Source: an uncultured Flavobacteriaceae bacterium (GTDB lineage: Bacteria; Bacteroidota; Bacteroidia; Flavobacteriales; Flavobacteriaceae). Taken from it: a stretch of DNA of 64,000 bases. Under the pieces are notes generated by a model. The model had not been told where the DNA came from and made no database searches. It worked only from the letters and a program-made list of their open reading frames with translations. Below, in pieces: positions 4,414 through 63,221 of this stretch. Position numbers and translations under genes: made by a program. The DNA is taken from contig CALJFB010000004.1 in the NCBI GenBank assembly GCA_938073895.1, positions 23,534 through 87,533 on the forward strand, written 5' to 3'. The first letter of the stretch is position 1. Each line of letters opens with the position of its first letter.

Positions 4414-5128
4414 TTACAACAGCACTTAATTGCATTTTTTTTGTTACCACTTTTTTAGTCTTAAAATCTTCAAATCGCATACTTAATGTATTGCCATTTT
4501 TTTCAATTTGAGTAATACTTGTCGTTTTTACAGATGTTCTATCCATAACAACACCATAATCCAAATTATCTTTTCCTGCTGTTTTATGAAACTCCAAAAA
4601 AGCAGATGCATTAAGATTATTATTACCTATAAAATTAGTAAACCAATTTTGTCTTTCTATTTTCTGACTTGGATTATATAAAGTTGCCGATGACCAAACA
4701 CATGTAGATAAATCTAGGTCTTTAATATGAGACGTTTGGCCATCCCAAACTACTTCAATAAATTTTAATGATAAATTCCAATCTACAAATACAATTGTAA
4801 ATGGTTCAATATTAGAAAAATTATAGTCTTTTAAATCCTCTAAAGTTTTCATTTTAAGAAAATCGCTAACCACAACACCTCTACTCTGCCTGTAAGGCAA
4901 AACACGTTTATGTTTAACAAAACCACCATTAAGCAAACAAACTACACGGTTTTTAGAACTCGCACCAATCCAGCTTCCGCCAGACAATTTATCTTTTGGC
5001 ATTAAAACCTTAGTTAAATTATCTTGATAAATTTCGGGATGTAAAGCAATTCTATTTGGTGCTTCATCTCTATTAGATGTTAACACGAAATCTGAATTAC
5101 CTTTATAAAATACGCTAACTGTACACAT
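4406..5128 (-). CDS. NRDE family protein (Ntn-hydrolase-like)
   Basis: 240 aa; N-terminal MCTVS, SNRDE, GGSWIG, LLNG, SRG motifs. Confidence 0.92.
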   Translation of the reverse strand: MCTVSVFYKGNSDFVLTSNRDEAPNRIALHPEIYQDNLTKVLMPKDKLSGGSWIGASSKNRVVCLLNGGFVKHKRVLPYRQSRGVVVSDFLKMKTLEDLKDYNFSNIEPFTIVFVDWNLSLKFIEVVWDGQTSHIKDLDLSTCVWSSATLYNPSQKIERQNWFTNFIGNNNLNASAFLEFHKTAGKDNLDYGVVMDRTSVKTTSITQIEKNGNTLSMRFEDFKTKKVVTKKMQLSAVVNG

Positions 5129-6994: not shown

Positions 6995-9340
6995 ATGAAA
7001 TACAAACTACTTTTTTTTACATTATTAGCAACAATACTTTTAAAAGCACAAAACAGCACTAATTCCATAGAACTAGAAAAACCATTTGTAGCTTTTAGTC
7101 CTTTTGGTGCTCCAGATACTTATCAAGACAAAATAAACAATGCCTTTAATTTTTTACAAGTTAAGAAACTCCTATCTAAACACTCTAAATTAAATAAAGC
7201 TAAATTATTTAACGTAAAAACCACAGAAATAAGTAAAAGAGTAAATCTTGGTCTAATCTTATCTGAATACGAGACATTAACCAAAAATTATTTTAACGAT
7301 ACTATTTCTAACACAGAAAGACAATCCATTGAAAACTTAAAATTAGATGCTAGTATAAAGACATCATCATCTATAGGAATACTAAGTCCACTTGCCATTA
7401 ATCATAAAGGATTAAGCATTGAATTTATCTTAAAAAATGAAAACATACTAAACACAACAGAAAAGGAAATCGAATTTATAGAAATAGATTTTAATGATGG
7501 TTTAGGCTATAAAATCATTCAGAAAAACGTACCAATACATTTAAATTACACTACTAAAGGTGAGAAAAAACTGAAAACAAAAATTACACTAAATAATGGA
7601 GAAAACTATTACTCAGAATCTAAATTAAACATCCTATTATCTCCTACAGATTTAAACAGAATTTACAATTTAGCGGTAACAACGTTTCAGTCTACTAACG
7701 TAGCTAACCCAGCAGATATTACTATCTATAATGAGGAAACAACTAATAATATTGGTACTGGAGAATATGACATTTATTTAAGTGCAGATGGCGTTTTAGA
7801 TAAACCTATTTTTTTAGTAGATGGCTTTGATCCTGGCGATTCTAGAAATACACAGAGCATCTATGAACTTCTAAATTTTGATGACAATGGCACCTTATCT
7901 AACTTAGGCGATTTAGTTAGAGCTGAAGGTTTTGATGTGGTTGTTTTAAATTTTCCAATTTACACAAGACAATCAGACGCAATGATTATTGATGGTGGCG
8001 TAGATTATATAGAACGAAATGCAATGCTACTTGTAGAACTAATTACTAAAATAAATAACGACAAAATTGGCACAGAACCAAATGTAGTAATTGGACCAAG
8101 TATGGGCGGACTTATTACTAGATATGGTTTAAATTTTATGGAAAATGAAGGTTTAAATCACGACACAAGATTATGGATAAGCTTTGATTCGCCTCAATTA
8201 GGTGCAAATGTACCAATAGGTTTTCAGTATTTATTTAATAGAATGGCTTATGGACTAGACTTAGGTAGTATTGCTGGAGACCAAAGCATTGTAGCTATAA
8301 GACCAATAATAGATGGAATGCTAAAATCAAGTGCAGCAAGACAAATGCTAACAGATCAATTTGAACCGCATCTTCAAAATGGTAGTATTGTAGACTTTAA
8401 TCCTAGTTTAACATTGCCAATAGCACATAACTTTCACCATCTATTTTTTAACAATCTAAACAACTTAACAACTTCTGGTTATCCAGAAAATCTTAGAAAA
8501 GTATCAATGATTAATGGTAGTGGACTAAACAATCGTTATAATGATAAAAACAATAATCCTATTTATCCAAACAGAGAAATACTTAACACAACTATAGAAG
8601 ATGTTGCTGTTCTTACTGATGCAACATTTAGAACTCGATTTTCTCCATATTTTAATGGTGTTGCTGAATCTGCTTATATTTTTATTGACGCACCATTTTT
8701 ATGTTTTTGCGATTTAGAAGTTAGTGCTAGCACAAAAGCTTTTAACTATACAGATGGTATAGATGCAGCTTCTGGTGGATTATTTGACTTAGGCGCACTA
8801 GCTGGCAGCTTAGGAACAGATCCTACAATAAATGCTTTTTTTGATGCTTTACAAACAGACTTTTTTAACTTTATTCCTTCTGTTAGTGGTATGGCTTTTG
8901 AAGTTACAAATAATGAAATAGACTGGTACCATACACCAGATAATGTTACTTCAAAAACTATAAACGCTGTTAATAGTGTTACTCCATTTGATAACTGGTA
9001 TATGCCAGATGAAAACCAACCTCATATTACTTTAACTCCAGAAAATGTAGCTTTTGCATTATCTGAAATTATACCAACTAGCTTAAATGTAAACACTAAC
9101 CATTTTAATGCTATTGATTTAATTAAAAACCCAACCAGTAATCTCATTGCAATAAAATCAACAAAAACATACAATAATGTTAATCTAAAAATTATAGACC
9201 TTAGCGGAAGACTAGTTTATAACACAAAAATAAATCTTACCTCTATAACAAAAATACCTATATTACTCTCTAGAGGAAATTATATACTATCTTTAGAGAA
9301 AGAGGAACTAAGTAAACGACTTAGATTAGTTATAGAATAA
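6995..9340 (+). CDS. T9SS type-A sorting domain protein with alpha/beta-hydrolase (lipase/esterase-like) domain
   Basis: 781 aa; signal peptide; KPIFLVDGFDPGD, GPSMGG nucleophile elbow, SFDSPQLGANVP; C-terminal KNPT...DLSGRLV...RGNYIL CTD. Confidence 0.8.
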   Translation: MKYKLLFFTLLATILLKAQNSTNSIELEKPFVAFSPFGAPDTYQDKINNAFNFLQVKKLLSKHSKLNKAKLFNVKTTEISKRVNLGLILSEYETLTKNYFNDTISNTERQSIENLKLDASIKTSSSIGILSPLAINHKGLSIEFILKNENILNTTEKEIEFIEIDFNDGLGYKIIQKNVPIHLNYTTKGEKKLKTKITLNNGENYYSESKLNILLSPTDLNRIYNLAVTTFQSTNVANPADITIYNEETTNNIGTGEYDIYLSADGVLDKPIFLVDGFDPGDSRNTQSIYELLNFDDNGTLSNLGDLVRAEGFDVVVLNFPIYTRQSDAMIIDGGVDYIERNAMLLVELITKINNDKIGTEPNVVIGPSMGGLITRYGLNFMENEGLNHDTRLWISFDSPQLGANVPIGFQYLFNRMAYGLDLGSIAGDQSIVAIRPIIDGMLKSSAARQMLTDQFEPHLQNGSIVDFNPSLTLPIAHNFHHLFFNNLNNLTTSGYPENLRKVSMINGSGLNNRYNDKNNNPIYPNREILNTTIEDVAVLTDATFRTRFSPYFNGVAESAYIFIDAPFLCFCDLEVSASTKAFNYTDGIDAASGGLFDLGALAGSLGTDPTINAFFDALQTDFFNFIPSVSGMAFEVTNNEIDWYHTPDNVTSKTINAVNSVTPFDNWYMPDENQPHITLTPENVAFALSEIIPTSLNVNTNHFNAIDLIKNPTSNLIAIKSTKTYNNVNLKIIDLSGRLVYNTKINLTSITKIPILLSRGNYILSLEKEELSKRLRLVIE

Positions 9341-9394: not shown

Positions 9395-10123
9395 TTATAA
9401 TTTAGCTGTCTTCTTAATAATTTTTGGTAATTTTTTATTTAAATCTTTTAACAAACGCTCTAAAGCACTTTCGCACATTGGTAAGATCTTTTTTGTACTC
9501 ATAACTGGAATACCACCAACCATTACCGATGTTTTTTTAGAATTAGCACCTTCTTTAATTACATATACTTTTTCTCCATTAGAATCGTAAAGACCCATTC
9601 TTACATTTGCTCTCATTTTAACAGTTGCAGTTCCTCCAATTCCAAATCCTTTTATTAAATCGAAAGAGATAGTAATAAACATTACACCATCTGCAGTTTC
9701 TTTAAAGATATTTGCTACAGAAACCTCATTAGTTTTTCCCATGAAACCTTCGTGTATTACTTTATAACCTTTATAAACCGCAAATCTTTTTAACTCTTCT
9801 TCTGATTTATCAAACTTTGGCACGTAAGCTTTATAAGCTTCATTACTTAAAACGTCTTCTTCATTTATTATTTTAAATGGAAACTCCTTGGAAAATTTGT
9901 TAAAGAACTCTGCATGAAACTTTTCTAAAATTGGAGTTAGATCAAAATCTGGGTTATCTCTTAACTTTAAAACAGATTCCAACATCTTTTCACTTCCAAT
10001 ATCTAAATCACTAAAACCAATAATTTTATCGGTATTAAAAGTAACAATAGCTACATTTTTATCTTGAGCATTAGCAAATCCAAACACTAAAATTAAACCT
10101 AGAATTAAACTTATTTTTTTCAT
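9395..10123 (-). CDS. Hypothetical exported protein
   Basis: 242 aa; Sec signal peptide MKKISLILGLILVFGFANAQ; no family recognised. Confidence 0.75.
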   Translation of the reverse strand: MKKISLILGLILVFGFANAQDKNVAIVTFNTDKIIGFSDLDIGSEKMLESVLKLRDNPDFDLTPILEKFHAEFFNKFSKEFPFKIINEEDVLSNEAYKAYVPKFDKSEEELKRFAVYKGYKVIHEGFMGKTNEVSVANIFKETADGVMFITISFDLIKGFGIGGTATVKMRANVRMGLYDSNGEKVYVIKEGANSKKTSVMVGGIPVMSTKKILPMCESALERLLKDLNKKLPKIIKKTAKL

Positions 10124-10432: not shown

Positions 10433-13144
10433 CTACAGGTTATAAATAGCTCTAATAGTAACAAATCTTGGCTGTATAAAATACTCTGAAGCACTTACAG
10501 AAAGGTTTGATGCACTAGATTGATTTTGAGAACTTGTATCTAATAAATTGGTTGCCTTCAATTCAAATTCCCATTTAGAATCTTCGTCTTTTCTAAAAGC
10601 TAATGAAGCATTCCAAAATTCAAAAGTATTTAATGAAGCTGATTCATTTCTAAAATCGTTAAATGTATAATCTGTTTTAAATGTAAACGTTTTAAATATT
10701 AAAGCATCTAATTCTATAGAAGGTGCATGTGTATAAAACTTAGTTCTTGATTGACCTTGATCGTTATCTTGAATTCTATAATTATAAATTAGCCCAAAAT
10801 TTGGTGCTGATCTAAAATTAGAACTAAAATCAAGTTTGTAATTCTGTGTGTAATTCTCGTTAATAGAAACGTTACCATTAACTAATTGATTAAACTTTGA
10901 ATAGTTAAGTGAACCTCTAAGAGATGCTTTTAACTTTCCAAAAGTTCTTTGAAAACGACCACTTGCTGTTAAGTTTTCGTCTGAAAAATTAGAATTAAAT
11001 GGACTACTAACATTAACAACACTTCCTGGACTAAACTGAGATTGATTTCTAATATTATCAACACTTTTAGTATAACTTATTGTTCCAAAAACATTGGTGT
11101 AATTAAACATATTAAAACTAGAATAAAATAAGTTCAAATTATGAGATAAAGAATTTTCCAACAATGGATTTCCAGACTTTAAAGAGTTATAATTATTTAA
11201 AACTAAACCTTGCGCTAATTGAGAGACATCTGTAAACTGATTTTGCATTCGATAGTTTAATGTAATTTGCTCGCTATTTTTTAATTGCATTCTAACATTA
11301 AAATCTGGCAATAAACGTGTAAATGTTTGGCTAAAGTCTTGTCCAAATTGCTCTGTGTTTAGTGAAAAGGCATGTGCAGAAAACCCAGGTGTAAATGTAA
11401 AAATACCTGCTTTTAATCTGTAATGCAATCCTAAATAAATATCACTAAAATTGTAAGTTGTATTATTTCCTACTAACCCATTATTTATTGTTGGTGTTGG
11501 ATTAATTACAGAACCATCGTCTAGGGTTTGAAAAATATTACTATCAAAATCTTGTCTGCTCAAAATAGTTCCAAAAGTTAAATTAATATCACTTTTTTTA
11601 CTTAAAATATTCCAGTAATCTAGCTTAGCATCTAATTGATTAGACTTTACTCGTCTGTCTTGCCCTATATTGTAACCTGTTTGAAATTTGTCTAAACCTA
11701 AAGCATCTGCTGTAGAATCGTAATTTAATTTATCTTCTAAAAAAGAATTATAAAAAGGGTCTTCATCTGATATTAAATGTTGAGCGTTTAGTGCAAAAAT
11801 GTTTTTTTCGTTTAAAGTATAATAGTAATCTAAATTTTGATTTATACTAAATGGAGTACTAGATTCTAACTCGTTTACATTTCCTATTACAGAAGACGCA
11901 ACATTTTGTGTTTGAGATTCTTTAGATAGTCTTCCTAAAATCTCGTAATCTAATTGATTGTTACTATTTGGCTTGTAACTAGTGTTTAGCTTTAACATTC
12001 CTAAATCACTTTTTTGGTGTGTTAAACTTTCTGTATTCTCATTTGGAATACCTAACGTTTGATCTGTAAATACACGACTATTATTTTCTTGTAGATCTAT
12101 ACGACTGCTAGAAAATATACCAAATCCACCAATATCTAACTTCTTATTAGGTGATACACTAAAGTTAGCGGCTCCAAATTTAGTGTTAATATCTTTTGCC
12201 TTATTATTTTGTAGTTGTAAGAAACTTAAGCTATTGTTACCAAGGTTTAAGTTAGTACCACTACTTTGGCTAGGTGCATTAAAACCTCCAGTAAAATTAA
12301 AATAATCTCTTCTAGAAAAAGCGACTTCGCCTAAATTATTTAAATCTCCTATAACGTTAATGCTATATTTAGGGCTGTAATAAAATAATTTTGGTTGTGC
12401 TAAATACAAACCATTTGGATCTGCTATTCCAGATCCAGCAGTTATTGTTCCAAACCAAAAATTCTTTTTACCGTCTTTAAGTTTAATATTAATTGCAATA
12501 TTGTCTTGGTTGTTTTTTACACCACTTAATTGACCTACTTCTGCATAGTTTTTTAAAACCTGCACTTTATCTACAGCATTTGCAGGAATATTTTTAGTGG
12601 CAAGTTTAGAATCTCCATCAAAAAAATCTTTTCCTTCAACCATTACTTTCCCCACTACTTTTCCTTCAACTTCAATCTGTCCTTCGTCATTAATCTCAAC
12701 TCCTGGTAGCTTTTTAAGTACATCTTCTAGCTTACGTTCCGTACCATTTTTAAAAGAGTCTGCATTATAGATTAATGTATCTCCGCTAATTGTTACAGGC
12801 ATTTCGTAAGTTAATTCTACTTGATCCAAGCTATTATCTTCCTTTAAAACAAAGGTTTTATCCATGTTTTCTGACTTAGTCTGCATTATTATATCGGCAG
12901 ATTTCATTCCTATATAACTTACTTGAATATTGTAAGATGTATTTTCTTCTAAATTAAGTTTAAAGCGACCTTTATCGTTAGTAATAGCGTAAGAGTCCAT
13001 CTTTTTTGTGGCTTGATTAATAGCCACAATATTTGCTAATTCTAAAGGTTCGCCAATACTATCCTTAACAGTACCTTGATATTTTATTTGAGAAAAAGAT
13101 ACAGTTACAACTAGTAGTAGTACCAAAGAAATTAAGTTTTTCAT
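10433..13144 (-). CDS. Outer-membrane beta-barrel protein with N-terminal carboxypeptidase-regulatory-like domain (TonB-dependent-receptor-like)
   Basis: 903 aa; signal peptide; GTVKDS.GEPLE.AN, GDTLIYNADSF, LEDVLKKLPGVE, V.GKDFF.GD.KLATKNIPA; C-terminal YFIQPRFV...YNL. Confidence 0.8.
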   Translation of the reverse strand: MKNLISLVLLLVVTVSFSQIKYQGTVKDSIGEPLELANIVAINQATKKMDSYAITNDKGRFKLNLEENTSYNIQVSYIGMKSADIIMQTKSENMDKTFVLKEDNSLDQVELTYEMPVTISGDTLIYNADSFKNGTERKLEDVLKKLPGVEINDEGQIEVEGKVVGKVMVEGKDFFDGDSKLATKNIPANAVDKVQVLKNYAEVGQLSGVKNNQDNIAINIKLKDGKKNFWFGTITAGSGIADPNGLYLAQPKLFYYSPKYSINVIGDLNNLGEVAFSRRDYFNFTGGFNAPSQSSGTNLNLGNNSLSFLQLQNNKAKDINTKFGAANFSVSPNKKLDIGGFGIFSSSRIDLQENNSRVFTDQTLGIPNENTESLTHQKSDLGMLKLNTSYKPNSNNQLDYEILGRLSKESQTQNVASSVIGNVNELESSTPFSINQNLDYYYTLNEKNIFALNAQHLISDEDPFYNSFLEDKLNYDSTADALGLDKFQTGYNIGQDRRVKSNQLDAKLDYWNILSKKSDINLTFGTILSRQDFDSNIFQTLDDGSVINPTPTINNGLVGNNTTYNFSDIYLGLHYRLKAGIFTFTPGFSAHAFSLNTEQFGQDFSQTFTRLLPDFNVRMQLKNSEQITLNYRMQNQFTDVSQLAQGLVLNNYNSLKSGNPLLENSLSHNLNLFYSSFNMFNYTNVFGTISYTKSVDNIRNQSQFSPGSVVNVSSPFNSNFSDENLTASGRFQRTFGKLKASLRGSLNYSKFNQLVNGNVSINENYTQNYKLDFSSNFRSAPNFGLIYNYRIQDNDQGQSRTKFYTHAPSIELDALIFKTFTFKTDYTFNDFRNESASLNTFEFWNASLAFRKDEDSKWEFELKATNLLDTSSQNQSSASNLSVSASEYFIQPRFVTIRAIYNL

Positions 13145-13170
13145 TATTTATTTTTAATTTTAATTAAATA

Positions 13171-14067
13171 TTAGCGTCTTCCACTTTTGCCACCTCTGCG
13201 CCCACCATACATTTCTCGCATTTCTTCCATTTTTTTCTTTACAATATCTTGGTATTCCTTTTTAGTTACTACTTTACCTTTAGTAGGTTCTTTAATAGTT
13301 TCTTTTTGAGATGGATTTAAAGTTATAGAAGAACATAATACTGTTGTCTTACCAGAATTAACCTCTAGAATTAAACCAGGCAAACCAGAAAACTCACCAG
13401 GTCCACTACTTACAGGTACTTGCATTGTATACCAAGCAGTAACCTCTACTTCTTTAGGCATTTCAATATCCTCCATAAAACTAGATGTTTTTATTTTAGT
13501 GGAATCTTTTACAACCTTAGCTTGGTCTTTAGTTTTATCTTTTTTGGGACTTTTACGTCTCATATTTGAAAAATCAAATTCGTCTACAGGTTTCATAGCT
13601 GTTGCTTTAAAACACATGTACTTTCCAATTTGCTTTGTTTCTCCAGACATTTCCCAATCTAGTTTTTGAATAGAATCTATAACCAAAAATTGCTTTCCAA
13701 AAAAATCTTGTTCCTGTTTAATATTTCCTTCTTTAACATTTTTATATTGAGCGCCACCAGTAAAACTTTTCATCATACCGCCAAAACCTCTTCCGCCTCC
13801 AGGTGCATCTAATTGCTCTTCTTCTTTATAAGTAGATTCTGTTTTGCTAAATGTTAACACATACGTTTTCTCTAAAAAACTTTTCATGCGTTCCTGCATC
13901 ATTTTTTTTCTTTCAGGAGATAGTTCTTTTCCGCCCCATTTATCTAAATCTATTGTAGTTTTAGATATGTATGTTGCTTTTCCTTGAAAATCAGATTGGG
14001 AAAACCCTGACATTGTTACTAATGTAAACAATGTGCAAATAGCTAATTTTATTGATAATATTCTCAT
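13171..14067 (-). CDS. GLPGLI family protein
   Basis: 298 aa; signal peptide; IGKYMCFKAT, TAWYT..PV..GP.EFSGLPGLILEV. Confidence 0.93.
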   Translation of the reverse strand: MRILSIKLAICTLFTLVTMSGFSQSDFQGKATYISKTTIDLDKWGGKELSPERKKMMQERMKSFLEKTYVLTFSKTESTYKEEEQLDAPGGGRGFGGMMKSFTGGAQYKNVKEGNIKQEQDFFGKQFLVIDSIQKLDWEMSGETKQIGKYMCFKATAMKPVDEFDFSNMRRKSPKKDKTKDQAKVVKDSTKIKTSSFMEDIEMPKEVEVTAWYTMQVPVSSGPGEFSGLPGLILEVNSGKTTVLCSSITLNPSQKETIKEPTKGKVVTKKEYQDIVKKKMEEMREMYGGRRGGKSGRR

Positions 14068-14088
14068 TTTTATAATTTTTTAAGATGA

Positions 14089-14096
14089 CAAATTTA
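14089..14096 (-). promoter_or_regulatory. -7 promoter box for the GLPGLI operon
   Basis: TAAATTTG on the minus strand, 21 nt upstream of ATG. Confidence 0.65.
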
Positions 14097-14110
14097 GTCT
14101 TATTATAATG

Positions 14111-14132
14111 TAAGACGATATTAAGACGATAT
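14111..14132. repeat. Perfect 11-bp tandem direct repeat (TAAGACGATAT x2)
   Basis: Read directly at 14111-14121 and 14122-14132. Confidence 0.9.
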
Positions 14133-14317
14133 TGTTAAGGCTAAATCTGTTAAATTAGTGTTAAAAAAAATAAAATCATAAAATCTAACCTAAAGTTAAA
14201 AGCTTTAATCGCACTATATTGTGGTAAACAAGTAACGCAAGCATAGAATAATACAAAAAATAAATGCGCGTTCTTTTATTTACAAACTAACGATATAATT
14301 TTTGTAACTTGCTTTTC

Positions 14318-15091
14318 ATGAAAAAAGTACTATTAATTATAAGTCTTCTTATATCTACACTTACCTTTTGTCAAATTAAAGTAGATTTAATAGGCATTAA
14401 TCAATACAAAAGAGATTCTATAATTAGCATAGACAGCTTTACCTTTAAATACTATCTTAATGGTAATAAGTTGAAAAAAGAAAATAAATTTACAACATTT
14501 AATTACAGCAACTTAAAGCTTGGACGTGTTACAAAAGTAGAAGCCTTTAACGCTTTAAAAACATTGGTTCTTTACAGAGATACAAATACTACAGTAATTT
14601 TAGATAATAGATTTGCTGAAATTAGAATTATTGATTTTAATCAATTAAAAGATATAAAGTTAGTTTCTCATATTTCTAATGCTAACAACAATAGCTTCTG
14701 GGTTTTTAACACTATAGAAAACAGATTAGAGCTTTTTGATTATAACCTTTCTGTAACTAAAGCCAAAACAAATCCTATTACGTCAAAAATTATAGATATT
14801 ACAAGCGATTATAATTATGTATGGCTATTAACAGAAACAGATGTTTTATGTTATAATTACGCAGGTAGTTTAATTTACAAGCTACAAAACAATAATTATA
14901 AAGCAATTAAAAACTTTAATGAAAATTTAATCTTACAAAAAGAAAACGTATTATATTTTTATAATAAAGAGACTGAAAAATTAAATTTAATTTCTTTATC
15001 ACATCAACTTATAAATTCGTTTTTTGTATCGCAACAAAACCTTTATATTTGCGAACTAAATAAACTTTACACATACCAACTAAATTATTAA
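14318..15091 (+). CDS. Hypothetical exported protein (beta-strand-rich)
   Basis: Long ORF; ATG at 14318 gives signal peptide MKKVLLIISLL and is preferred to the TTG at 14309; 2 nt before the dNK gene. Confidence 0.7.
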   Translation: MKKVLLIISLLISTLTFCQIKVDLIGINQYKRDSIISIDSFTFKYYLNGNKLKKENKFTTFNYSNLKLGRVTKVEAFNALKTLVLYRDTNTTVILDNRFAEIRIIDFNQLKDIKLVSHISNANNNSFWVFNTIENRLELFDYNLSVTKAKTNPITSKIIDITSDYNYVWLLTETDVLCYNYAGSLIYKLQNNNYKAIKNFNENLILQKENVLYFYNKETEKLNLISLSHQLINSFFVSQQNLYICELNKLYTYQLNY

Positions 15092-15093
15092 AT

Positions 15094-15708
15094 ATGCACG
15101 TTGCAATTGCTGGAAATATAGGCGCAGGAAAAACTACTTTAACAAAATTATTAGCTAAACACTTTAATTGGGAACCGCAGTTGGAAGATGTTGTAGACAA
15201 TCCTTATTTAGACGATTTCTATAACCAAATGGAACGTTGGAGTTTTAATTTACAAGTCTATTTCCTAAATAGTAGATTTAGACAAGTGGCGCAAATTAGA
15301 GAAAGCGGTAAAGATATTATACAAGATAGAACCATATATGAAGATGCACATATTTTTGCACCAAATCTTCATGCCATGGGTTTAATGACTAACAGAGATT
15401 TTGAAAATTACAAATCTCTTTTTAATTTAATGGAAAGTTTTGTAGCTCCACCAGATGTATTAATATACCTAAGAAGTAGCATTCCTAATTTAGTAGCGCA
15501 AATCCATAAGCGTGGTAGAGATTATGAAAACACAATTAGTATAGATTACCTAAGTAGATTAAATGAGCGCTACGAAGCTTTTATACAAGGTTACACAAAA
15601 GGAAAACTTATTATTATTGATGTAGATCATTTAGACTTTGTTGCTAATCCTGAAGATTTAGGAGGTATTATTAATAAAATTGATGCTGAAATAAATGGAT
15701 TATTTTAA
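15094..15708 (+). CDS. Deoxynucleoside kinase
   Basis: 204 aa; P-loop GNIGAGKTT, LQVYFL..RF, QDRTIYED. Confidence 0.93.
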   Translation: MHVAIAGNIGAGKTTLTKLLAKHFNWEPQLEDVVDNPYLDDFYNQMERWSFNLQVYFLNSRFRQVAQIRESGKDIIQDRTIYEDAHIFAPNLHAMGLMTNRDFENYKSLFNLMESFVAPPDVLIYLRSSIPNLVAQIHKRGRDYENTISIDYLSRLNERYEAFIQGYTKGKLIIIDVDHLDFVANPEDLGGIINKIDAEINGLF

Positions 15709-15722
15709 AACAAGATATTATC

Positions 15723-15762
15723 AAAAAAAAGCCTTCTTTATATATAAAGAAGGCTTTTTTTT
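15723..15762. terminator. Bidirectional terminator (perfect 40-bp palindrome)
   Basis: AAAAAAAAGCCTTCTTTATA|TATAAAGAAGGCTTTTTTTT between convergent genes. Confidence 0.88.
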
Positions 15763-15863
15763 GAGTTGTATTATAAGTTATTAGGCAAGACATCTTTAAA
15801 TCTTAGCAGATATTAAAAGCTTTTTTTTAATGATTTATTTTAAATAAGCTTTAAAAATTCTAT

Positions 15864-18353
15864 TTAAAAATAAAAACCAAAACTTCCGGTTATACCAAAA
15901 GCTCTAGATTGTGGTACATTTAAATAATTTCCTCTAAAATTAAAGTCTATTCTAAACACTTTAAATATGTTTGCTATTCCAACGCTATATTCGTAATAAG
16001 CATCTTTGTTTGGAGAATTATATAATAATCCAGATGCATTAATTGCTCTATTTTCTTGAGAAACATCTCCCATAACACCACGAATCCCAATAACTTCTCT
16101 CCAATTTAATTCTCTTAAAAATGGAATTCTTGAAAACAAACGTCCATTAAAATTATGTTCTATATGAAGTGTTACATACTCATCTGATACAAACTCATAG
16201 AAATCTAAGTTAGAAAACGTATTATATATTGAAAAATAAGTTTGGTTTCCAGGAATAACACTTAATAAACCTAAAGGAACTTGTCCAAATGTTTTCCCAG
16301 CTTCTACTATTGTTGTTAGCCTACCAAAACCTCCAATTGCCCATGGCTGTCTATAAGAAAACTGCATTTTAGTGTAGTTAAAATCACCGTTTAATATACT
16401 CTTATCACCTCTTGTTATTTGAGCAAAAAGACTAGCAAAGTCACTGTTTTTAATAGTACGTTCCACACCATAACCTGTCATTTCTCTTTTTGGAAAATAG
16501 GATATAGAAAATGCTGTTTCAAACTGTTTAACTTCGCTTTTTTTGGTGGTTTGAGAAGCATCTGTATAATAGTCAAGACTAAATGTATTAGACGCAGATT
16601 CTAAGGTTCTATAAGTTGTACTTAAACGAGCTACTAAATTTTTAGATGGTTCTAACTCAAAAGCTAGTGAGGTTAGATTAATATTGGTTAATTTATCGTT
16701 TATTCCAGTTCCTACAACAGATGAGGACGCTAAACTACGACCTAAAACATCTGTACTTGTTGTTAAACTAGCTCCAATTTGCTCTACATCTCGTCTATTT
16801 CCTCCAGAGATTATAAATCTGCTTTTTTTATCTATTAACCATTTACCAGAAATACCATATTTAAACTTATTATCTTTAAATCCGTATGCCGTAAAACCTT
16901 CCAAACGCCAAACATCGTTCTGACCAAAATAAGTTCTTCCTCCTGCTCTAAGACGTAAACCTTCTACATCATTAAACCCAAAGGTTGAAAAAACGGGTCC
17001 ATAATCTAAATTTAATTCGTCTAGTTCTATATAGCCAGAAGCTAAAATACTTCCTAAGTTATACAAGCGCTTAAACTTCTTTGTGTTTTTTAAGGAGTCT
17101 AACATAACGTACACGCCTTTTTCGTCTTTGCTTAATTGTTCTAAACGTTTTTCTTCCCAAAAAGCATCATCTTTATTATAGAGTTCCTCATCAAAACTGT
17201 ATACTTTTTGGATATAAAACTCTTTATCCTTTTTAATATCGAATTTATAATTATCGTATAATGTTGTTCGCTTTCCATAAATTCCTTTGGAATCTTCTTT
17301 TTTATTAAAAGCAAAATCACTCATAAAATAATCTCGTTTCATAAGAAAAACAGAATCATTTAAAACTTCAAATTCTTGCTCTATATAAATTTCTTTAACC
17401 CAATTTATGTTGGCACTTTTAGAAGCTTGTAAATTTATTTCTTTTATTGCAAATGTGGTATCCGCAACCCAAAAATCACCTTTAAAAGTCAATTCATTTT
17501 TACGTCTTGGATAGTAAATTATGTTGTAACACCATTTATTATCTCTAAAAGAACTATCTGCCAATACATAATTGTAAGTGTTTATACCAGTTTTAGATAA
17601 AGGACTTGTAAAACTTTTATCGAAGAATTTTAAATAATTATCGTACACATCGTATTCCGAATACAAATCGTCTATAAAGTCTATTATAGTTTGGTTGTTA
17701 TTAAACCCAGAGTTCTTGTTTCCTTTAAGGATTTCTAACTTTTCGTTTGTAACATTATCTCCATAAACCTCGCTAGAAGCTTCGTTTATAAATATTGGCA
17801 AGTAGGTTTTACCAGTAACTTTAGAAGTATCTATTTGATCAAAGACAAATTCCATTCCTCTAAAAAGCTTACTTTTCATGGTGGCACTATCTATGGTATT
17901 TAAATCAAATTCTACTTTTTCGTACTTGTCGTATTCGTATTGTTTATATTTATTTAATCCGTTTGTTCTTTTATTCTGCCAAATTTTACGTAAAATATCT
18001 ATGGCCGGATTATTTTTTTTTGACTGCTTTCCGGTTACTAAAACAACTTCGTTTAGCGAGGCTATTTCTTCTTTTAAAATAATTTTAAGAGCGTAATTGG
18101 CACCTTTTTTAAGTGAATATTCTTTCGTTTCATATCCAACAAAAGAAATTACTAGAGTTTTCCAATCTACATCATCTTCCAGGTAAAACTTACCATTCTC
18201 GTTGGTAATTGTTCCTTTAGCTGAGTTTTTAAATACCACATTTGCAAATGGCACAGAACTATTAAACTCATCAAAGACATAACCACTAACTTTAGTTTGT
18301 GCTAGTGTAATAAATGAGATTAAACTAAATATAAAGAAGAGGTGTTTTTTCAT
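15864..18353 (-). CDS. DUF5686 and carboxypeptidase-regulatory-like domain outer-membrane protein
   Basis: 829 aa; signal peptide; VPFANV, YEYDKYEKVEFD, ELTFKGDFWV, FGFNDVEGLRLR, C-terminal FGFYF. Confidence 0.82.
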   Translation of the reverse strand: MKKHLFFIFSLISFITLAQTKVSGYVFDEFNSSVPFANVVFKNSAKGTITNENGKFYLEDDVDWKTLVISFVGYETKEYSLKKGANYALKIILKEEIASLNEVVLVTGKQSKKNNPAIDILRKIWQNKRTNGLNKYKQYEYDKYEKVEFDLNTIDSATMKSKLFRGMEFVFDQIDTSKVTGKTYLPIFINEASSEVYGDNVTNEKLEILKGNKNSGFNNNQTIIDFIDDLYSEYDVYDNYLKFFDKSFTSPLSKTGINTYNYVLADSSFRDNKWCYNIIYYPRRKNELTFKGDFWVADTTFAIKEINLQASKSANINWVKEIYIEQEFEVLNDSVFLMKRDYFMSDFAFNKKEDSKGIYGKRTTLYDNYKFDIKKDKEFYIQKVYSFDEELYNKDDAFWEEKRLEQLSKDEKGVYVMLDSLKNTKKFKRLYNLGSILASGYIELDELNLDYGPVFSTFGFNDVEGLRLRAGGRTYFGQNDVWRLEGFTAYGFKDNKFKYGISGKWLIDKKSRFIISGGNRRDVEQIGASLTTSTDVLGRSLASSSVVGTGINDKLTNINLTSLAFELEPSKNLVARLSTTYRTLESASNTFSLDYYTDASQTTKKSEVKQFETAFSISYFPKREMTGYGVERTIKNSDFASLFAQITRGDKSILNGDFNYTKMQFSYRQPWAIGGFGRLTTIVEAGKTFGQVPLGLLSVIPGNQTYFSIYNTFSNLDFYEFVSDEYVTLHIEHNFNGRLFSRIPFLRELNWREVIGIRGVMGDVSQENRAINASGLLYNSPNKDAYYEYSVGIANIFKVFRIDFNFRGNYLNVPQSRAFGITGSFGFYF

Positions 18354-58445: not shown

Positions 58446-58688
58446 TTATTAATTTAATCTTAGTTTTTTGTTTCTTTCTAAAATTTGATATTGAAATATA
58501 CTTACACAATCTTTTTTAGTGACTCTACCTTTAGCGTATTCTTTTTTAATTAGCGTAACTAATTCATCGTCGGCTGAATGATGTCTAAAAACATAATTAA
58601 TATCATGTGCTGCTTTACATTTATTTTTAAACCGGGAACTTAATGGATAGTCGAATAACTAAAACTTATTCTTCCTAATTAAATAGTA

Positions 58689-59780
58689 CTAACTCTTCAC
58701 GTCTAAAGCATCGCGCAAGGCATTTCCAATTAGCATAAATGCCATTACTAAGACCATAATACATAAACCAGGCACTAAAGCCAAGTATGGTTTTCCAAGT
58801 ATTATATAATTATAATGATCTTTAATCATTGCGCCCCAACTTGCCATTGGTGGCTGCGCTCCAATTCCTAAGAAGCTTAAACCACTTTCTATTAAAATAG
58901 CAGCTGCAAAATTTGCCGCACAAATAACAATTACTGGCGCCATAATATTTGGTAGAATATGTTTTGAGATAATTCTGTAATTATTAAATCCTAATGCTTT
59001 TGCTGCGGTTACATACTGTAACTCTTTAGCACTAATTATTTGTCCTCTAACTACTCTGGCAACTTCTACCCACATTGTTAAACCTACCGCAATAAAGACT
59101 TGCCAAAAACCTTTCCCTAAAGCTAAGGTTATGGCTATAACTAATAATAAGGTTGGAATGGACCAAGTAATATTTATAATCCACATTATAAACGCATCGG
59201 TTTTTCCACCATAAAAACCTGCTATACTTCCTAAGCTTATTCCTATTAATAACGATATTAAAACGGCAATAAAACCAATAGAAAACGAAATTCGAGAACC
59301 AATTAATACACGACTTAATAAATCTCGTCCGTATTTGTCTGTTCCTAAATAATAGGTTTTAGATTCTACTAAATCTTCTGGCGATTTAGAATATTTTGAA
59401 ACGTCTAACTGCTTGTCTTGACCTATTAACCCATCGGAAGCATATTCTGTGTAACTAATAATGTCTCCTTCAACTTTATAGGATGAAATTGGTATGAGTA
59501 GATCTGGATTTTTGTCGCCTAAAAACCATTTGCTAAAAAAACCTTGCTTGTTTGTCTTTAATGAAGGTAAAACTATAGTCTTGACTGAAAATCCTGGCGA
59601 TTTACTATGTATACTTAATTGGATTTGATTAGCGTTTTCCGAATTATCTGGTGCTAAAACATAAGCAAACAATGCAAAAAAACCAATAAGTACTACAAGC
59701 GTAAAACTGAAAACGCCCCAAAAATCTTTTTTAAATTTTTGGAGCGCAATACTTGTTAATGACGTTGATTTATGTATCAA
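58689..59780 (-). CDS. Peptide/nickel-type ABC transporter permease (DppC/OppC-like)
   Basis: 363 aa; LGTDKYGRDLLSR, G..AGFYGG..D, ARVVRGQ, EAA-like YVTAAKALG, ESGLSFLG.G. Confidence 0.9.
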   Translation of the reverse strand: MIHKSTSLTSIALQKFKKDFWGVFSFTLVVLIGFFALFAYVLAPDNSENANQIQLSIHSKSPGFSVKTIVLPSLKTNKQGFFSKWFLGDKNPDLLIPISSYKVEGDIISYTEYASDGLIGQDKQLDVSKYSKSPEDLVESKTYYLGTDKYGRDLLSRVLIGSRISFSIGFIAVLISLLIGISLGSIAGFYGGKTDAFIMWIINITWSIPTLLLVIAITLALGKGFWQVFIAVGLTMWVEVARVVRGQIISAKELQYVTAAKALGFNNYRIISKHILPNIMAPVIVICAANFAAAILIESGLSFLGIGAQPPMASWGAMIKDHYNYIILGKPYLALVPGLCIMVLVMAFMLIGNALRDALDVKS

Positions 59781-59789
59781 TTATTTAAT

Positions 59790-59874
59790 ATTTAACGTTG
59801 TTGTATATGGTTTTTTGCGTGTTTTAAATAAACAAATACTTGCCAAAAGCAATTGATTATACACGTTGTTACCA
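59790..59874 (-). repeat. attC-like site of the SIMPL cassette
   Basis: Minus strand TTGGTAAC-AACGT-GTATA...TTGC...GCAA...TATAC-AACAAC-GTTAAAT; begins 1 nt after the SIMPL stop. Confidence 0.65.
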
Positions 59875-59881
59875 AATATTT

Positions 59882-60613
59882 TTATTCTACTTTATAAACC
59901 AACTTCATTGTAATTGAAGCTGTTTTTTCTCTTGAACTAGTGTTAAAAGTTCCTCCCCACGAATAATCTTCCTTTGAATTTTGTCCAGTAATTTGAAATA
60001 CTCCCATTTTAGCAGATTCTAATTTACCCAATTTTCCACCTGAAAACTCTGAAATTTTTTCTGCTCGTATTCTGGCATCTTCTGTAGCTTTAGAAATCAT
60101 TTCAATTTTGAGATCAGCCAATTTTGTATAATAATACCTAGGTGAGTCTGAATAAAACTGAACACCTTTATTCAATAATTCAGTAATTTCTCTAGATACT
60201 TTCTCAATTTTATCCACGTTTTCAGATTCAATTTGGACAGATTGGGTTAATTCATAACCTACAAACTCGTCTCCAATATAATTTCCATCTGATGAGTAAA
60301 TCTGTTTGTTTTTTTGATTTGTACTGACAGCACTATAAATAAGTTGTTCAATATTAATTCCTTTTTTTTCTATATATTCGTTTATAACGGATTTATTTTC
60401 TTCTAAAGTCAAATAGGCTTGTTTTAAGTCAATATTTTCAGCTCCAAACCTACCTTCCCAAACTATTAGGTCAGAAGAAAAATCTGCTTTACCTAATCCA
60501 GTTACTTGAATTTCGCCTTCAACCTTATTTCTATCTGTATATGCTTTTCCTAGGAAAATTGAAGATGCAACTATTGCAATTCCAAAAATTATTGAATTCG
60601 TATATTGTTTCAT
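59882..60613 (-). CDS. SIMPL (DUF541) domain protein, cassette cargo
   Basis: 243 aa; N-terminal TM, I.VTG.G, KIEMISKATEDAR.RAE.I, GKL...MGVFQIT; flanked by a perfect 13-bp inverted repeat. Confidence 0.85.
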   Translation of the reverse strand: MKQYTNSIIFGIAIVASSIFLGKAYTDRNKVEGEIQVTGLGKADFSSDLIVWEGRFGAENIDLKQAYLTLEENKSVINEYIEKKGINIEQLIYSAVSTNQKNKQIYSSDGNYIGDEFVGYELTQSVQIESENVDKIEKVSREITELLNKGVQFYSDSPRYYYTKLADLKIEMISKATEDARIRAEKISEFSGGKLGKLESAKMGVFQITGQNSKEDYSWGGTFNTSSREKTASITMKLVYKVE

Positions 60614-60636
60614 TATTTCTCTGTCTTTTTAATATT

Positions 60637-60689
60637 TGGTAACGGTTGTTGTAAAATGCGTTTTAATGTATTTTTACATAGTGTTATAG
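60637..60689 (-). repeat. attC-like site of the upstream cassette
   Basis: Minus strand CTATAAC-ACTA-TGTAAAAAT...ATTTTACA-ACAACC-GTTACCA; L-like arms differ by one unpaired base. Confidence 0.7.
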
Positions 60690-60702
60690 CCAGCTTTATT
60701 TT

Positions 60703-60974
60703 TCAATTCGCTATTCCTATTAGAAAAATCATCCCAATCATATAAAGTGGTATAAGTACAACTTGTGTCCAAAGGATGATTTTATATTTTTTTTCAGTTT
60801 TGGGTCTGCCTCTTCTCTAATTACTCTTCTAAACTCGATCAGTTCTCTTGGTGTCAGCCAGAAATATGATACTTTTTCACCCTTACTTTCCATTATTCTG
60901 AGCATTTTATACCAAAGCATCAATCCTGTTATTCCTCAGATTAGAAAGTATACGAATGGAAGTATTGGAAACAT
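60703..60974 (-). pseudogene. Decayed ~90-aa two-TM membrane protein gene (cassette cargo)
   Basis: ATG 60974; in-frame TGA at codon 13 (60938-60936); one extra A in the A8 run (60787-60794) restores ...LKKKYKIILWTQVVLIPLYMIGMIFLIGIAN* ending at 60703. Confidence 0.7.
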
Positions 60975-61070
60975 TCTTTTATTTTAATTGGCTACAACGT
61001 TTAAAAAAAAACTTTAAAATAACTATTCTTAGAAAATAGGTCTCTACAGTAATTTAATAAAACCGTAAAA

Positions 61071-63221
61071 CTAATCTTTTATAGTTTCTGTAATTTTAAT
61101 AGCATAAGTGGTCTTTAAATCTTGTAACACATGAATAGCTTCTTCCACATATACATCTTGATTTAAATTCTTATGCCATCTATTACGTTTTTCTTTTAAA
61201 ATAGTGTCTTGCTCAAATAACGCTTTTTCGTAAGGCAAAGAATTAAACACTAAATCTGTTTTATACTTAGATATAGAATCAAATTGTTTTGCTTCTTTTT
61301 CGTTTTGATCTAATTCTGCTTTGTACGTTTTATAGTTTAATGCATATTCTTTTTTATCCATTTTAGTTTTTGCCCATTTAGCATTAGCTTCAATTAAGCG
61401 TAATTGTTGATTTGCTTTCATACGTTCTTTACTACTTGCAATGGTTTTATCGTAATCAAAATAACGATTCCATTCTTGATACTTGGCAGGTTCAATTTTA
61501 TCCCAAGCTAATGGATTTTCTTGATCTCTTTCACCTATATCAATATAACTGTAACGATCCGGCACAACAACATCGCTGGTTACACCTTTTAACTGTGTAG
61601 ATCCGCCATTAATTCTGTAAAACTTTTGACGTGTTAATTTTAATGCGCCTAAATCTGTATGAGAACTACTTCTAACCATACGGTTTAAATCTAATACATT
61701 TTGAACTGTTCCTTTTCCATACGTTTGCTGACTTCCAATAATAATAGCACGTTTATAATCTTGCATTGCAGCAGCTAAAATTTCGCTAGCCGACGCAGAT
61801 AATTCGTTTACCATAATTACTAATGGTCCATCCCAAACAATAGATTTATCTGTATCCTCCAAAACCTCTTGCGTTTCTCCTGCAGAACGCACTTGTACAA
61901 TTGGGCCATCTTTAATAAAAAGACCTGCCATATCTACAACAGTTTTTAAAGATCCACCACCATTATCTCTAAGGTCTAACACTAAACCTTCAATACCTTC
62001 TTCTTTTAAACGCTCAATTTCTTGTCGAATATCTGATGCCGCATTTCTATTCTTATAATCTGTAAAATCAATATAAAAACGTGGTAAATTTATAATACCA
62101 AATTTTTTATTTTCCTTTTCTACAATAGAAGATTTTGCATAGGTTTCTTCCAACTCTACAACATCTCTTACAATAGTAATATCTTCTACAGAACCGTCTA
62201 CTTTTCTAACGGTTAAAATAACTTTGGAATCTTTTGGGCCTTTTATTAATTTAATAGCATCGTCTATACGCATACCAACAACACTAACGGCAATTTTTTC
62301 TTTTTGTTGGCGTACTTTTAGAATAACATCTTCAACTTCTAATTCTTCGCCTCTCCAAGCTGGTCCACCAGAAACTAGAGAAATAATTTTTATATTATCG
62401 TTTTTCTTTTGAAGTCTTGCACCAATTCCTTCTAATTTACCAGACATTTGTTGGTCAAATTTCTCTTTCTCTTTTGGAGCTAAGTAAGATGTATGCGGAT
62501 CAAACTCTTCTACAATAACGTTTATATATACAGAAAACCAATCTTCGCGATCCATATCTTCTAAATAGTCGTTATAGTAAGAATCTAAAGAACTTAACGT
62601 TTCCTGTCTGGCTTTAGCTTCTAGTTCTTTAGAAGACATTGTTTTAACATCTGTAGTATTTTCTACTTTAAAATCTGGTTTGTTTTCTATTTTCTTTTGC
62701 TCTACCAAATCATCATAATTAGATAAAACGGTATATTTTAGTTGTTTTCTCCAACGTTCTTTTAATGCTTTTTTATTTTTTGGGAATTCTAATTTCTCAA
62801 AATCAGCATTGTAAAATTCGTCTTTAGAAAAATCAAAAGGTTTATCTAAGATGTCCTTAAAATAACTTTTAGCTTCTTGCTGGCGAATTAACATTTTCTC
62901 GTTAACTAGATTAAAAAACGAAATATCGTAAGCCTTAAGCTGATCGTCTATTTTTGTTTCAAAAGCTTTAAATTCTTTAATATCTTGCTTAATAAAGTAG
63001 CGTTTAAATGGATCTACAGCTTGTAAATAATCCGAATAAACTTCTTTAGAAAAATCGTCGTTAATATCTTTAGGCTCAAAGTGCAATTGCTCTAAAGCCA
63101 TAGTAATAATTTGGATTAATAATTTATCTTTATTGGGATCGTTGTCTACTTTAGATGTAAAGCTACAAGAGCCAAAAGCAAACAAGACTAAAAGTACTAA
63201 AACGCTATAATTCCTCTTCAT
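61071..63221 (-). CDS. prc: Carboxy-terminal processing (tail-specific) protease, S41 family lipoprotein
   Basis: 716 aa; lipobox FGSC; DPHTSY, GIGA, PDZ (GGPA), DLRDNGGGSL, SASASEI, TYGKGTVQ. Confidence 0.93.
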   Translation of the reverse strand: MKRNYSVLVLLVLFAFGSCSFTSKVDNDPNKDKLLIQIITMALEQLHFEPKDINDDFSKEVYSDYLQAVDPFKRYFIKQDIKEFKAFETKIDDQLKAYDISFFNLVNEKMLIRQQEAKSYFKDILDKPFDFSKDEFYNADFEKLEFPKNKKALKERWRKQLKYTVLSNYDDLVEQKKIENKPDFKVENTTDVKTMSSKELEAKARQETLSSLDSYYNDYLEDMDREDWFSVYINVIVEEFDPHTSYLAPKEKEKFDQQMSGKLEGIGARLQKKNDNIKIISLVSGGPAWRGEELEVEDVILKVRQQKEKIAVSVVGMRIDDAIKLIKGPKDSKVILTVRKVDGSVEDITIVRDVVELEETYAKSSIVEKENKKFGIINLPRFYIDFTDYKNRNAASDIRQEIERLKEEGIEGLVLDLRDNGGGSLKTVVDMAGLFIKDGPIVQVRSAGETQEVLEDTDKSIVWDGPLVIMVNELSASASEILAAAMQDYKRAIIIGSQQTYGKGTVQNVLDLNRMVRSSSHTDLGALKLTRQKFYRINGGSTQLKGVTSDVVVPDRYSYIDIGERDQENPLAWDKIEPAKYQEWNRYFDYDKTIASSKERMKANQQLRLIEANAKWAKTKMDKKEYALNYKTYKAELDQNEKEAKQFDSISKYKTDLVFNSLPYEKALFEQDTILKEKRNRWHKNLNQDVYVEEAIHVLQDLKTTYAIKITETIKD

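Follow-up and report, generated by a model that had tools for sequence, protein, structure and literature searches.

A 64,000-nt stretch of DNA from an uncultured Flavobacteriaceae bacterium (contig CALJFB010000004.1, positions 23,534 to 87,533; hereafter the window) contains, between the housekeeping genes prc (tail-specific protease) and an ABC permease gene, two small units: cassette A, with a decayed gene (gene A), and cassette B, with an intact SIMPL/DUF541 gene. We conclude that they are quite probably two promoterless cassettes of an integron-like site-specific recombination system of marine Flavobacteriales, inserted at a secondary chromosomal G|TT site. Comparison with other genomes demonstrated the insertion against an empty site, its G|TT boundaries, the complementarity between the end of each cassette and its own start (the own-start rule), an attC-like geometry of the 3' sites and, elsewhere, the association of such arrays with a recombinase gene. 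A preliminary description, made from the sequence alone, had proposed a dispersed, integrase-less, integron-like capture system. The window is indeed an insertion at an ordinary site, but other genomes contain a dedicated recombinase and an array platform; the likeness to integrons holds for the geometry, crossover and arrays, while an integron in the strict IntI sense is unsupported, since the recombinase is Xer-like and lacks the IntI insertion.

The insertion is apparent from the relatives of the window. A prc protein scan, with one genome per species, yielded ten flavobacterial loci (L001-L009 and L013), in which the prc orthologs were 90-91% identical in Aurantibacter and Mesoflavibacter metagenome-assembled genomes (MAGs), 73-74% identical in five Olleya species, one uncultured Olleya and one further Aurantibacter MAG, and 60% identical in one uncultured Flavobacteriaceae bacterium. 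In 10/10 relatives, the permease gene follows prc directly, with a gap of 3-95 nt and without SIMPL or gene A, so the objection that SIMPL might be fixed at this locus fails. The intergenic region of L001 is colinear with the window flanks and reads ...TTTTATTGAATAG|TTAAATATTAAATAATTGAC, with the junction at G|TT and the empty site ...AATAG|TTAAATATT, where the window has ...TTTTTTTTTAAACG|[1202 bp]|TTAAATATTAAATAATTGAT. Because L001 lacks these 1202 bp (60997-59796) colinearly, they are an insertion with both ends at the predicted G|TT. The same insertion is present in five further conspecific metagenome contigs (L107, L109-L112). The features of the locus are the following.

61071..63221, minus strand: prc, tail-specific protease of 716 aa, upstream housekeeping flank (Pfam TSP_NTD, Peptidase_S41, PDZ, DUF3340)
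60999..61070, minus strand: native prc-permease intergenic DNA, left flank, 72 nt, colinear with the L001 intergenic region
60989..60998, minus strand: left junction G|TT and cassette A start (R'-like) box GTTGTAGCCA; L001 homology stops at this G
60643..60997, minus strand: cassette A, 355 bp, with G|TT at both ends, missing from the 10 relatives
60703..60974, minus strand: gene A, decayed, for a two-transmembrane protein of ~88 aa (TGA at 60938-60936, frameshift near 60738)
60643..60692, minus strand: cassette A attC-like site, from its fold when closed with its own start box
60631..60643, minus strand: A/B junction G|TT and cassette B start box GTTACCAAATATT; L028-L031 SIMPL homology begins at TTACC
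59796..60642, minus strand: cassette B, 847 bp, missing from the 10 relatives; the unit recurs in unrelated contexts
59882..60613, minus strand: SIMPL/DUF541 gene, 243 aa, with an N-terminal signal or anchor, intact (Pfam PF04402, E 2e-20)
59796..59880, minus strand: cassette B attC-like site, from its fold and nhmmer homology to the 3' sites of other cassettes
59781..59795, minus strand: right flank, native target TTAAATATTAAATAA resuming past the right junction, identical to L001 7206-7220, GTTAAATATTAAATAATTGA
58689..59780, minus strand: OppC-type ABC permease, 363 aa, TTG start, downstream housekeeping flank (Pfam BPD_transp_1, OppC_N)

Read along the minus strand, the order is prc (63221-61071), the 72-nt intergenic DNA, unit A, unit B and the permease (59780-58689). 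The G of G|TT lies at 60998, 60643 and 59796, giving units of 355 bp (60997-60643) and 847 bp (60642-59796), the sizes first proposed; the right boundary, originally given as 59797, was off by one. Both genes begin within about 30 nt of GTT as described, with the ATG 24 nt past the G in gene A (60974) and 30 nt past it in gene B (60613). The stop codon of SIMPL ends 1 nt ahead of the cassette B end box, in agreement with the claim that the genes stop within ~10 nt of their AAC box, while gene A, being a pseudogene, does so only in its ancestral frame. A lack of promoter-like boxes had also been noted and was borne out, in that a motif scan gave no Bacteroidetes -7 box (TAnnTTTG) in the intergenic parts of the locus and a second scan gave no excess of sigma-70-like sites at the locus. 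Because no -7 box is present in the intergenic parts, expression of the cassette genes would need read-through, and we suggest that they are expressed in this way.

The two ends of each unit are related to each other. On the minus strand, the cassette B boxes are GTTACCAAATATT (60643-60631) and AATATTTGGTAAC (59880-59868), complementary at 13/13 positions, and those of cassette A are GTTGTAGCCA (60998-60989) and TGGCTATAAC (60692-60683), complementary at 9/10, both pairs standing where the preliminary description had placed them. Comparing the box that starts from G|TT with the AAC-ending box at the foot of the 3' hairpin of the same cassette, we found that the own-start rule, first noticed in these two units, holds in 12 independent cassettes from six genomes, with the following matches.

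SIMPL (window cassette B): 13/13
window cassette A: 9/10
L105 first cassette (c1): 10/10
L105 second cassette (c2): 9/9
L105 third cassette (c3): 12/13
L105 fourth cassette (c4): 10/10
L115 first cassette (c1): 9/9
L113 first cassette (c1): 9/9
L116 McrBC cassette: 10/10
L104 first cassette (c1): 8/9
L104 second cassette (c2): 9/10
L116 first cassette (c1): paired with one bulge

A run of at least 9 is reached by only ~1e-4 of the ~31,000 AAC anchors present in all the DNA retrieved, and these are mostly true sites or duplicates. Pairing of an end box with the start of the same cassette is expected because the intermediates would be circular. The empty site in ten relatives and the 12 cassettes together mark discrete units that begin at G|TT and end in a box complementary to their own start.

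We folded each 3' site closed with the start box of its own cassette, as in a circle; the resulting z-scores contain the complementary boxes by construction. The closed site of cassette A (-7.7 kcal/mol, z -2.25) has a 10-bp R stem, a 4x6 internal loop (ACTA / ACAACC), a 7-bp L stem (TGTAAAA:TTTTACA) and a 15-nt loop, its parts being R'' TGGCTATAAC at 60692-60683, ACTA, L'' at 60678-60672, L' at 60656-60650, ACAACC and the G at 60643. That of cassette B (-14.0 kcal/mol, z -2.3; bottom strand -16.8, z -3.55) has a 13-bp R stem, a 4x5 loop (AACG / ACAAC), a 6-bp L stem (TGTATA:TATACA) and a variable top, and consists of R'' AATATTTGGTAAC at 59880-59868, AACG, L'' at 59863-59858, the variable part, L' at 59807-59802, ACAAC and the G at 59796. 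Each of the 3' sites follows the geometry AAC, 1-5 nt, stem...stem, 5-7 nt, G|TT, and the succession of R stem, unpaired central spacer and L stem is also seen in the L028, L105, L113 and L116 sites. This layout, in which AAC and GTT face an unpaired spacer followed by a second stem, is that of the integron attC. The L stems of some sites contain single mismatches or bulges, and no conserved extrahelical base, of the kind that determines strand choice in classical attC sites, is definable. The L028 SIMPL site has a different, longer stem (-26.1 kcal/mol, z -6.5), and the stems covary when the SIMPL site is compared among the window, L028 and L030. By nhmmer (E 6e-11), the cassette B site also shares sequence homology with the 3' sites that Vicingus serpentipes (L115), Tenacibaculum ovolyticum (L105) and L094 have in unrelated cassettes. 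The variable stems of the sites align poorly. Motif and nhmmer scans gave no further cassette sites in the 64-kb window, and Rfam had no match in 58500-61500. A count of inverted repeats by first triplet (10 nt, at most 1 mismatch) gave no enrichment of GTT...AAC, a measure that is too noisy in AT-rich DNA.

The SIMPL unit behaves as a mobile unit in other genomes. Its protein is 99-100% identical across the five conspecific contigs, and proteins 80-94% identical to it occur in Oceanihabitans, Tenacibaculum, Polaribacter, Lacinutrix, Winogradskyella, Formosa and Crocinitomicaceae. These genes lie in unrelated contexts, beside a TIR/NB-ARC gene, between MOSC and peptidase M3 genes or among small open reading frames of Tenacibaculum; SIMPL is 85-94% identical in such contexts, whereas prc is only 60-73% identical between neighbouring genera. 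In a comparison that drew on 80 metagenome loci, the box pair was kept in L028, L029, L030 and L031, the loci at 85-88% SIMPL identity, confirming that the terminal complementary boxes accompany SIMPL homologs at other places too. In five SIMPL contexts, the homology begins exactly at TTACC, after G in 4/5 and after A in 1/5, and the units end ...CG|TT. In L016, the start box reads TTACT and the end box TTTAG, so that one C:G pair has become T:A by a compensatory change. The SIMPL unit of L029 stands within an array, where the preceding gene is followed by a ~100-nt element of the same kind, ending ...ACAAAACCG|TTACC, and in L028 the unit begins 42 nt past the stop codon of a truncated tyrosine recombinase.

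Several further observations concern these loci. The closest SIMPL relatives (L015-L017 and L024-L026; 93-94% identity) all lie ~245 nt upstream of a 1188-aa TIR/NB-ARC/TPR gene, and an indel of ~110 nt, placed exactly where the cassette starts and following ...ACAAAACG|TTAAAA, distinguishes L016 from L024. L028 contains an IS6-like transposase fragment and a ~110-nt inverted repeat pair (L028:2868-3220 and 4690-4810; ends like GGGTTCTGTCGCAT), which together enclose the truncated recombinase, the SIMPL cassette and the cassette after it, itself truncated. The arrangement resembles a pseudo-compound transposon that has taken up part of a platform, and the flanks may also be IS6 ends that cut the recombinase short.

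This platform has one architecture in six contexts (L028, L104, L105, L113/114, L115 and L116/117): a small divergent gene, the recombinase gene, TAA-ACACATAAT, a 12-bp hairpin, GGTTG|TT (GGATG|TT in L116, AATTG|TT in L105) and co-oriented cassettes. As to the recommended search for tyrosine recombinases beside hairpin clusters, other genomes have an Xer-like gene adjoining their arrays, and those of L104, L105, L113, L115 and L116 show similar hairpin sites flanking other promoterless genes, as the preliminary description had required. The element ACACATAAT and its hairpin were located at L028:3527-3568, L104:6391-6432 and L113/L115:11150-11195, each followed by an invariant GGTTG|TT. The hairpin sequence differs per genome, yet remains paired, with 7/12 pairs compensatory among four sequences; it is a candidate for an attI equivalent or a terminator. 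The small divergent gene (111-122 aa, CxxC...GRxDKxFC...CK..Y) is homologous in the four loci compared and has no Pfam match; it may be a regulator or accessory factor. It lies on the minus strand just upstream of the recombinase gene (L104:4820-5155, L105:4853-5212, L113:9533-9886 and L115:9547-9915), and L116, outside the four-locus comparison, has a divergent 121-aa gene at the same place (9541-9906).

The arrays carry genes for a TPR protein, a 196-aa/helix-turn-helix (HTH)/SymE module, an Rce1-like protease, MBOAT with a second gene, and McrBC, and a group II intron and an IS110 element are present in the L104 array as well. The ZapA-peptidase M23 neighbourhood is common to L105 and L116, in which the cassettes are different. 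In L116, a complete McrBC restriction system forms a 4.3-kb two-gene cassette (12521-16818). In L105, the stretches 7512-8822 and 10955-12444 cover the 196-aa/HTH/SymE module, which is cassette cargo, and an HTH gene, a DNA methylase and an ATPase that come after the array. The group II intron reverse transcriptase of L104 (7691-9630) lies directly past a cassette end box and the IS110-family transposase (10690-11670) within the same array, recalling the attC-targeting group IIC introns and IS1111-attC elements of integrons.

The platform recombinase is a 382-aa protein with the catalytic R, HxxRH, H and Y motifs and an extra N-terminal domain of ~110 aa. Homologs are abundant, since nearly all of 8000 scored candidates matched, the best 120 at 65-90% identity. 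The idea that all copies are split genes was rejected, as intact 382-aa copies are common. In the comparison with the IntI4 structure 2a3v, residues 277-305 of the recombinase (29 aa) stand against residues 175-246 of IntI4 (72 aa), and the IntI-specific (I2, ~43 aa) insertion is therefore absent.

The similarity to integrons raises the possibility that these are ordinary integron cassettes of the CALIN kind, on which a classical IntI encoded at another place in the genome or in a donor would act, with the Xer-like neighbour being incidental. We consider this unlikely. The units do resemble integron cassettes in being promoterless and mostly single-gene, in ending with an imperfect palindrome of R stem, unpaired spacer and L stem, in the G|TT crossover, in forming arrays beside a tyrosine recombinase, in their toxin-antitoxin and defence cargo and in the group II intron and IS110 invasion, and the integron integrase model TIGR02249 matches the recombinase at 196.8 bits. 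However, this match comes in two pieces and falls below the cut-off of 265. Integrons are defined by IntI, and the I2 insertion is held essential for recombining folded attC sites; an IntI with this insertion beside attI was found neither in the window nor in the recombinase beside the arrays elsewhere, where the first cassette adjoins a conserved site right after the Xer-like gene in six platforms. GTT followed by a purine is the sole constant of the AT-rich flavobacterial sites, and the core consensus R' GTTRRRY / R'' RYYYAAC fits only 2/10 start boxes, extending the deviation already noticed for the window boxes GTTGTAG and GTTACCA. Since both the core boxes and the recombinase depart from what defines integrons, we do not file the cassettes as strict members of that family. 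With two attC-like sites and no recombinase within 64 kb, the window would resemble a CALIN, a status that hinges on the same core consensus.

Two further comparisons concern host and gene order. CALIN, SALIN and attG insertions are documented (PMC9024848; bioRxiv 10.1101/2022.09.11.507474), and off-platform genomic sites have the consensus GWT (bioRxiv 10.1101/2022.09.11.507474); the window agrees with them in having isolated cassettes at an ordinary GWT genomic site, ...AAACG|TTAAATATT, outside an att platform. Integrons are reported to be nearly absent from Bacteroidota (PMC9024848), and IntegronFinder surveys list nothing but In0 and a single Salinibacter integron for Bacteroidetes, with no integron in a Tenacibaculum genome, although Flavobacteriales host the cassettes described here. 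The flavobacterial recombinase gene points in the same direction as the cassettes, with a conserved hairpin and GGTTG|TT behind it, unlike the usual integron arrangement. Chromosomal integrons of the Treponema and Chlorobi type also have intI co-oriented with and upstream of the array, and they encode a true IntI with I2 and have canonical attC cores. The flavobacterial platform is like them in placing the recombinase upstream of the array on the same strand and unlike them in the I2 insertion and the attC cores.

We also regard it as quite improbable that the units are Xer-dependent double-stranded modules, such as integrative mobile elements exploiting Xer (IMEX) or the pdif modules of Acinetobacter, which would recombine at dif-like duplex sites without any part for the hairpins, these being, for example, terminators. 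The proteins most similar to the recombinase are XerA/XerC/XerD, and its best NCBIfam model is XerA (NF040815; 231.7 bits, cut-off 220). Modules of the pdif type are flanked by inverted boxes, and the flavobacterial modules likewise have recognition elements in inverse orientation at their borders and build up in tandem at a single site. However, no dif-like duplex site of 11-6-11 (28 bp) is visible at the junctions, and two ~11-bp arms around a 6-8-bp centre are lacking at the module borders. The junctions are instead 50-190-nt hairpins with attC geometry, in which the conserved AAC and GTT lie 40-190 nt apart with self-complementary DNA between them and fixed spacer lengths, and the covariation of the SIMPL-site stems noted above argues that the hairpins matter. 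The platform gene is moreover, unlike Xer itself, an additional 382-aa paralog that is extended at the N-terminus, and in some genomes it is dispensable, being a pseudogene there.

The perfect 13-bp inverted repeat closely around SIMPL might suggest a small non-autonomous transposon or miniature inverted-repeat transposable element (MITE) with terminal inverted repeats, which we find highly improbable. The empty site puts the true right boundary 72 nt beyond the right arm, so the repeats are not at the very ends, and there is no target duplication past the shared (AC)GTT. The repeat sequence also differs per cassette, which no single transposase would tolerate, and among >80 SIMPL loci we found no copy bounded at the repeat tips with target-site duplications. 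The last alternative, chance inverted repeats around ancestral genes that were later deleted in relatives, agrees with a long-range repeat count in the window that equals the shuffle expectation, and it has a negligible probability, being effectively refuted by the 10/10 relatives without the genes, by the conserved SIMPL units with their boxes in unrelated contexts and by the own-start rule in 12 cassettes.

Several results weigh against the interpretation as recombinase-mobilised cassettes. The window has 7 perfect inverted repeats of at least 13 nt with arms 100-1200 nt apart, compared with 6.0 +/- 2.75 in 60 dinucleotide shuffles of the window; the box repeats taken alone are at chance level, and the 9/10 match of cassette A is weaker still. 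We accept the pattern as real because the comparative data support it, not the window alone. Two other inverted repeats in the window, at 17447-17461 / 18235-18249 (15 nt) and 3672-3685 / 4794-4807 (14 nt), are part of a number that fits chance. When folded as part of the array, the hairpins are thermodynamically weak and do no better than shuffled sequences (z -0.06 to -0.6), so that the hairpins of the preliminary description were recovered only in the form closed with the own start box. A generic scan for AAC-spacer-stem...stem-spacer-GTT is too loose when used alone, with many false matches in coding DNA, and is informative only for stems of at least 10 in array intergenic regions. The insertion is fixed in 6/6 conspecific sequences sampled, and no ongoing mobility is seen here. 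The 64-kb window contains no recombinase homolog or other tyrosine recombinase motif, as had been stated, and the link between the recombinase and the cassettes is proposed from adjacency only. In some genomes, the recombinase itself is damaged: the copy of T. ovolyticum DSM 18103 (L105:5387-6444) is a pseudogene with a TAA stop and a frameshifting deletion, that of L028 is truncated, and that of L104 (L104:5238-6390) has a frameshift in an A7 run. The A7 frameshift could be a long-read homopolymer error or phase variation.

Weighing these points together with the comparative evidence, we favour site-specific capture of the two cassettes and propose the following mechanism. A cassette would consist of TT and the start box, the gene, an end box ending in AAC, a spacer, the two strands of a stem, a second spacer and a G. 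In the circular form, the end box would pair with the start box and the 3' element would fold into an attC-like structure of two stems with an unpaired central spacer, the crossover taking place between G and TT. The site was presumably used as folded single-stranded DNA. The ancestral target would have been ...AAACG|TTAAATATT, just past the small hairpin and T-run that follow prc; the left flank has a hairpin CTATT..AATAG (61039-61023) and a T9 run and ends in ...AAAC before the target G at 60998, an arrangement that appears terminator-like. The 382-aa Xer-like recombinase was probably the catalyst for the window insertion and would have acted in trans or in the past. Three orders of events would fit equally well: cassette A first and then B at the 3' site of A, cassette B first and then A at the same G|TT, or the integration of one two-cassette circle. 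The data support the view that the window represents an off-platform (attG/SALIN-like) insertion from a system that was not found in the literature searched.

The two cassettes differ in their state, since cassette B is intact and cassette A is decaying. Gene A has few homologs (P0363, P0366 and P0368; 84-90 aa, with two hydrophobic helices). An in-frame TGA (60938-60936) replaces a Cys that is conserved in these homologs, and a frameshift near 60738 puts the C-terminal helix out of frame, indicating that gene A is a pseudogene. The TGA is present in all five conspecific contigs and three of them have a 28-bp deletion in the gene, a deletion that is thus polymorphic in the species. We also noticed that the cassette A start box GTTGTAGCCAATT (window 60998-60986) shares all 13 nt with the opening of the first cassette on the intact platform of L116 (L116:11191-11203), and the end boxes of the two are alike (GGCTA-TAAC and GGCTACTAAC); the genes differ. 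One more copy of the GTTGTAGCCAATT 13-mer lies on the minus strand of L115 in coding DNA unrelated to the cassettes, and the match could therefore be due to chance. Downstream of the insertion, the 5' coding region of the permease (59747-59713, minus strand) contains a 15-pair terminator-like hairpin with a T-rich tail, in codons for ALQKFKKDFWGVF; it probably reflects the coding sequence, because the sequence is kept in L001, L002 and L009.

A full-text literature search gave no description of such flavobacterial cassette arrays, although its coverage was incomplete and an earlier description is possible. We regard it as evenly balanced whether Flavobacteriaceae, Vicingaceae and perhaps Crocinitomicaceae (the last from protein homolog distribution alone) own an integron-analogous gene-capture platform whose cassettes also disperse to ordinary G|TT sites, by which we mean a small divergent zinc-ribbon-like gene, the 382-aa Xer-like recombinase without the IntI insertion, an attI-like hairpin with GGTTG|TT and AT-rich arrays of attC-like cassettes. 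Such a platform would mean either that the integron principle was invented independently or that an Xer-stage relative of integrons has survived. If so, the evolution of integron integrases from Xer recombinases would become directly testable, and integron finders would be missing a large mobile gene reservoir that includes defence (McrBC), toxin-antitoxin and envelope genes like SIMPL. Insertion at secondary, attG-type sites would then be a general route by which core operons are reshaped, beyond the integrons of proteobacteria.

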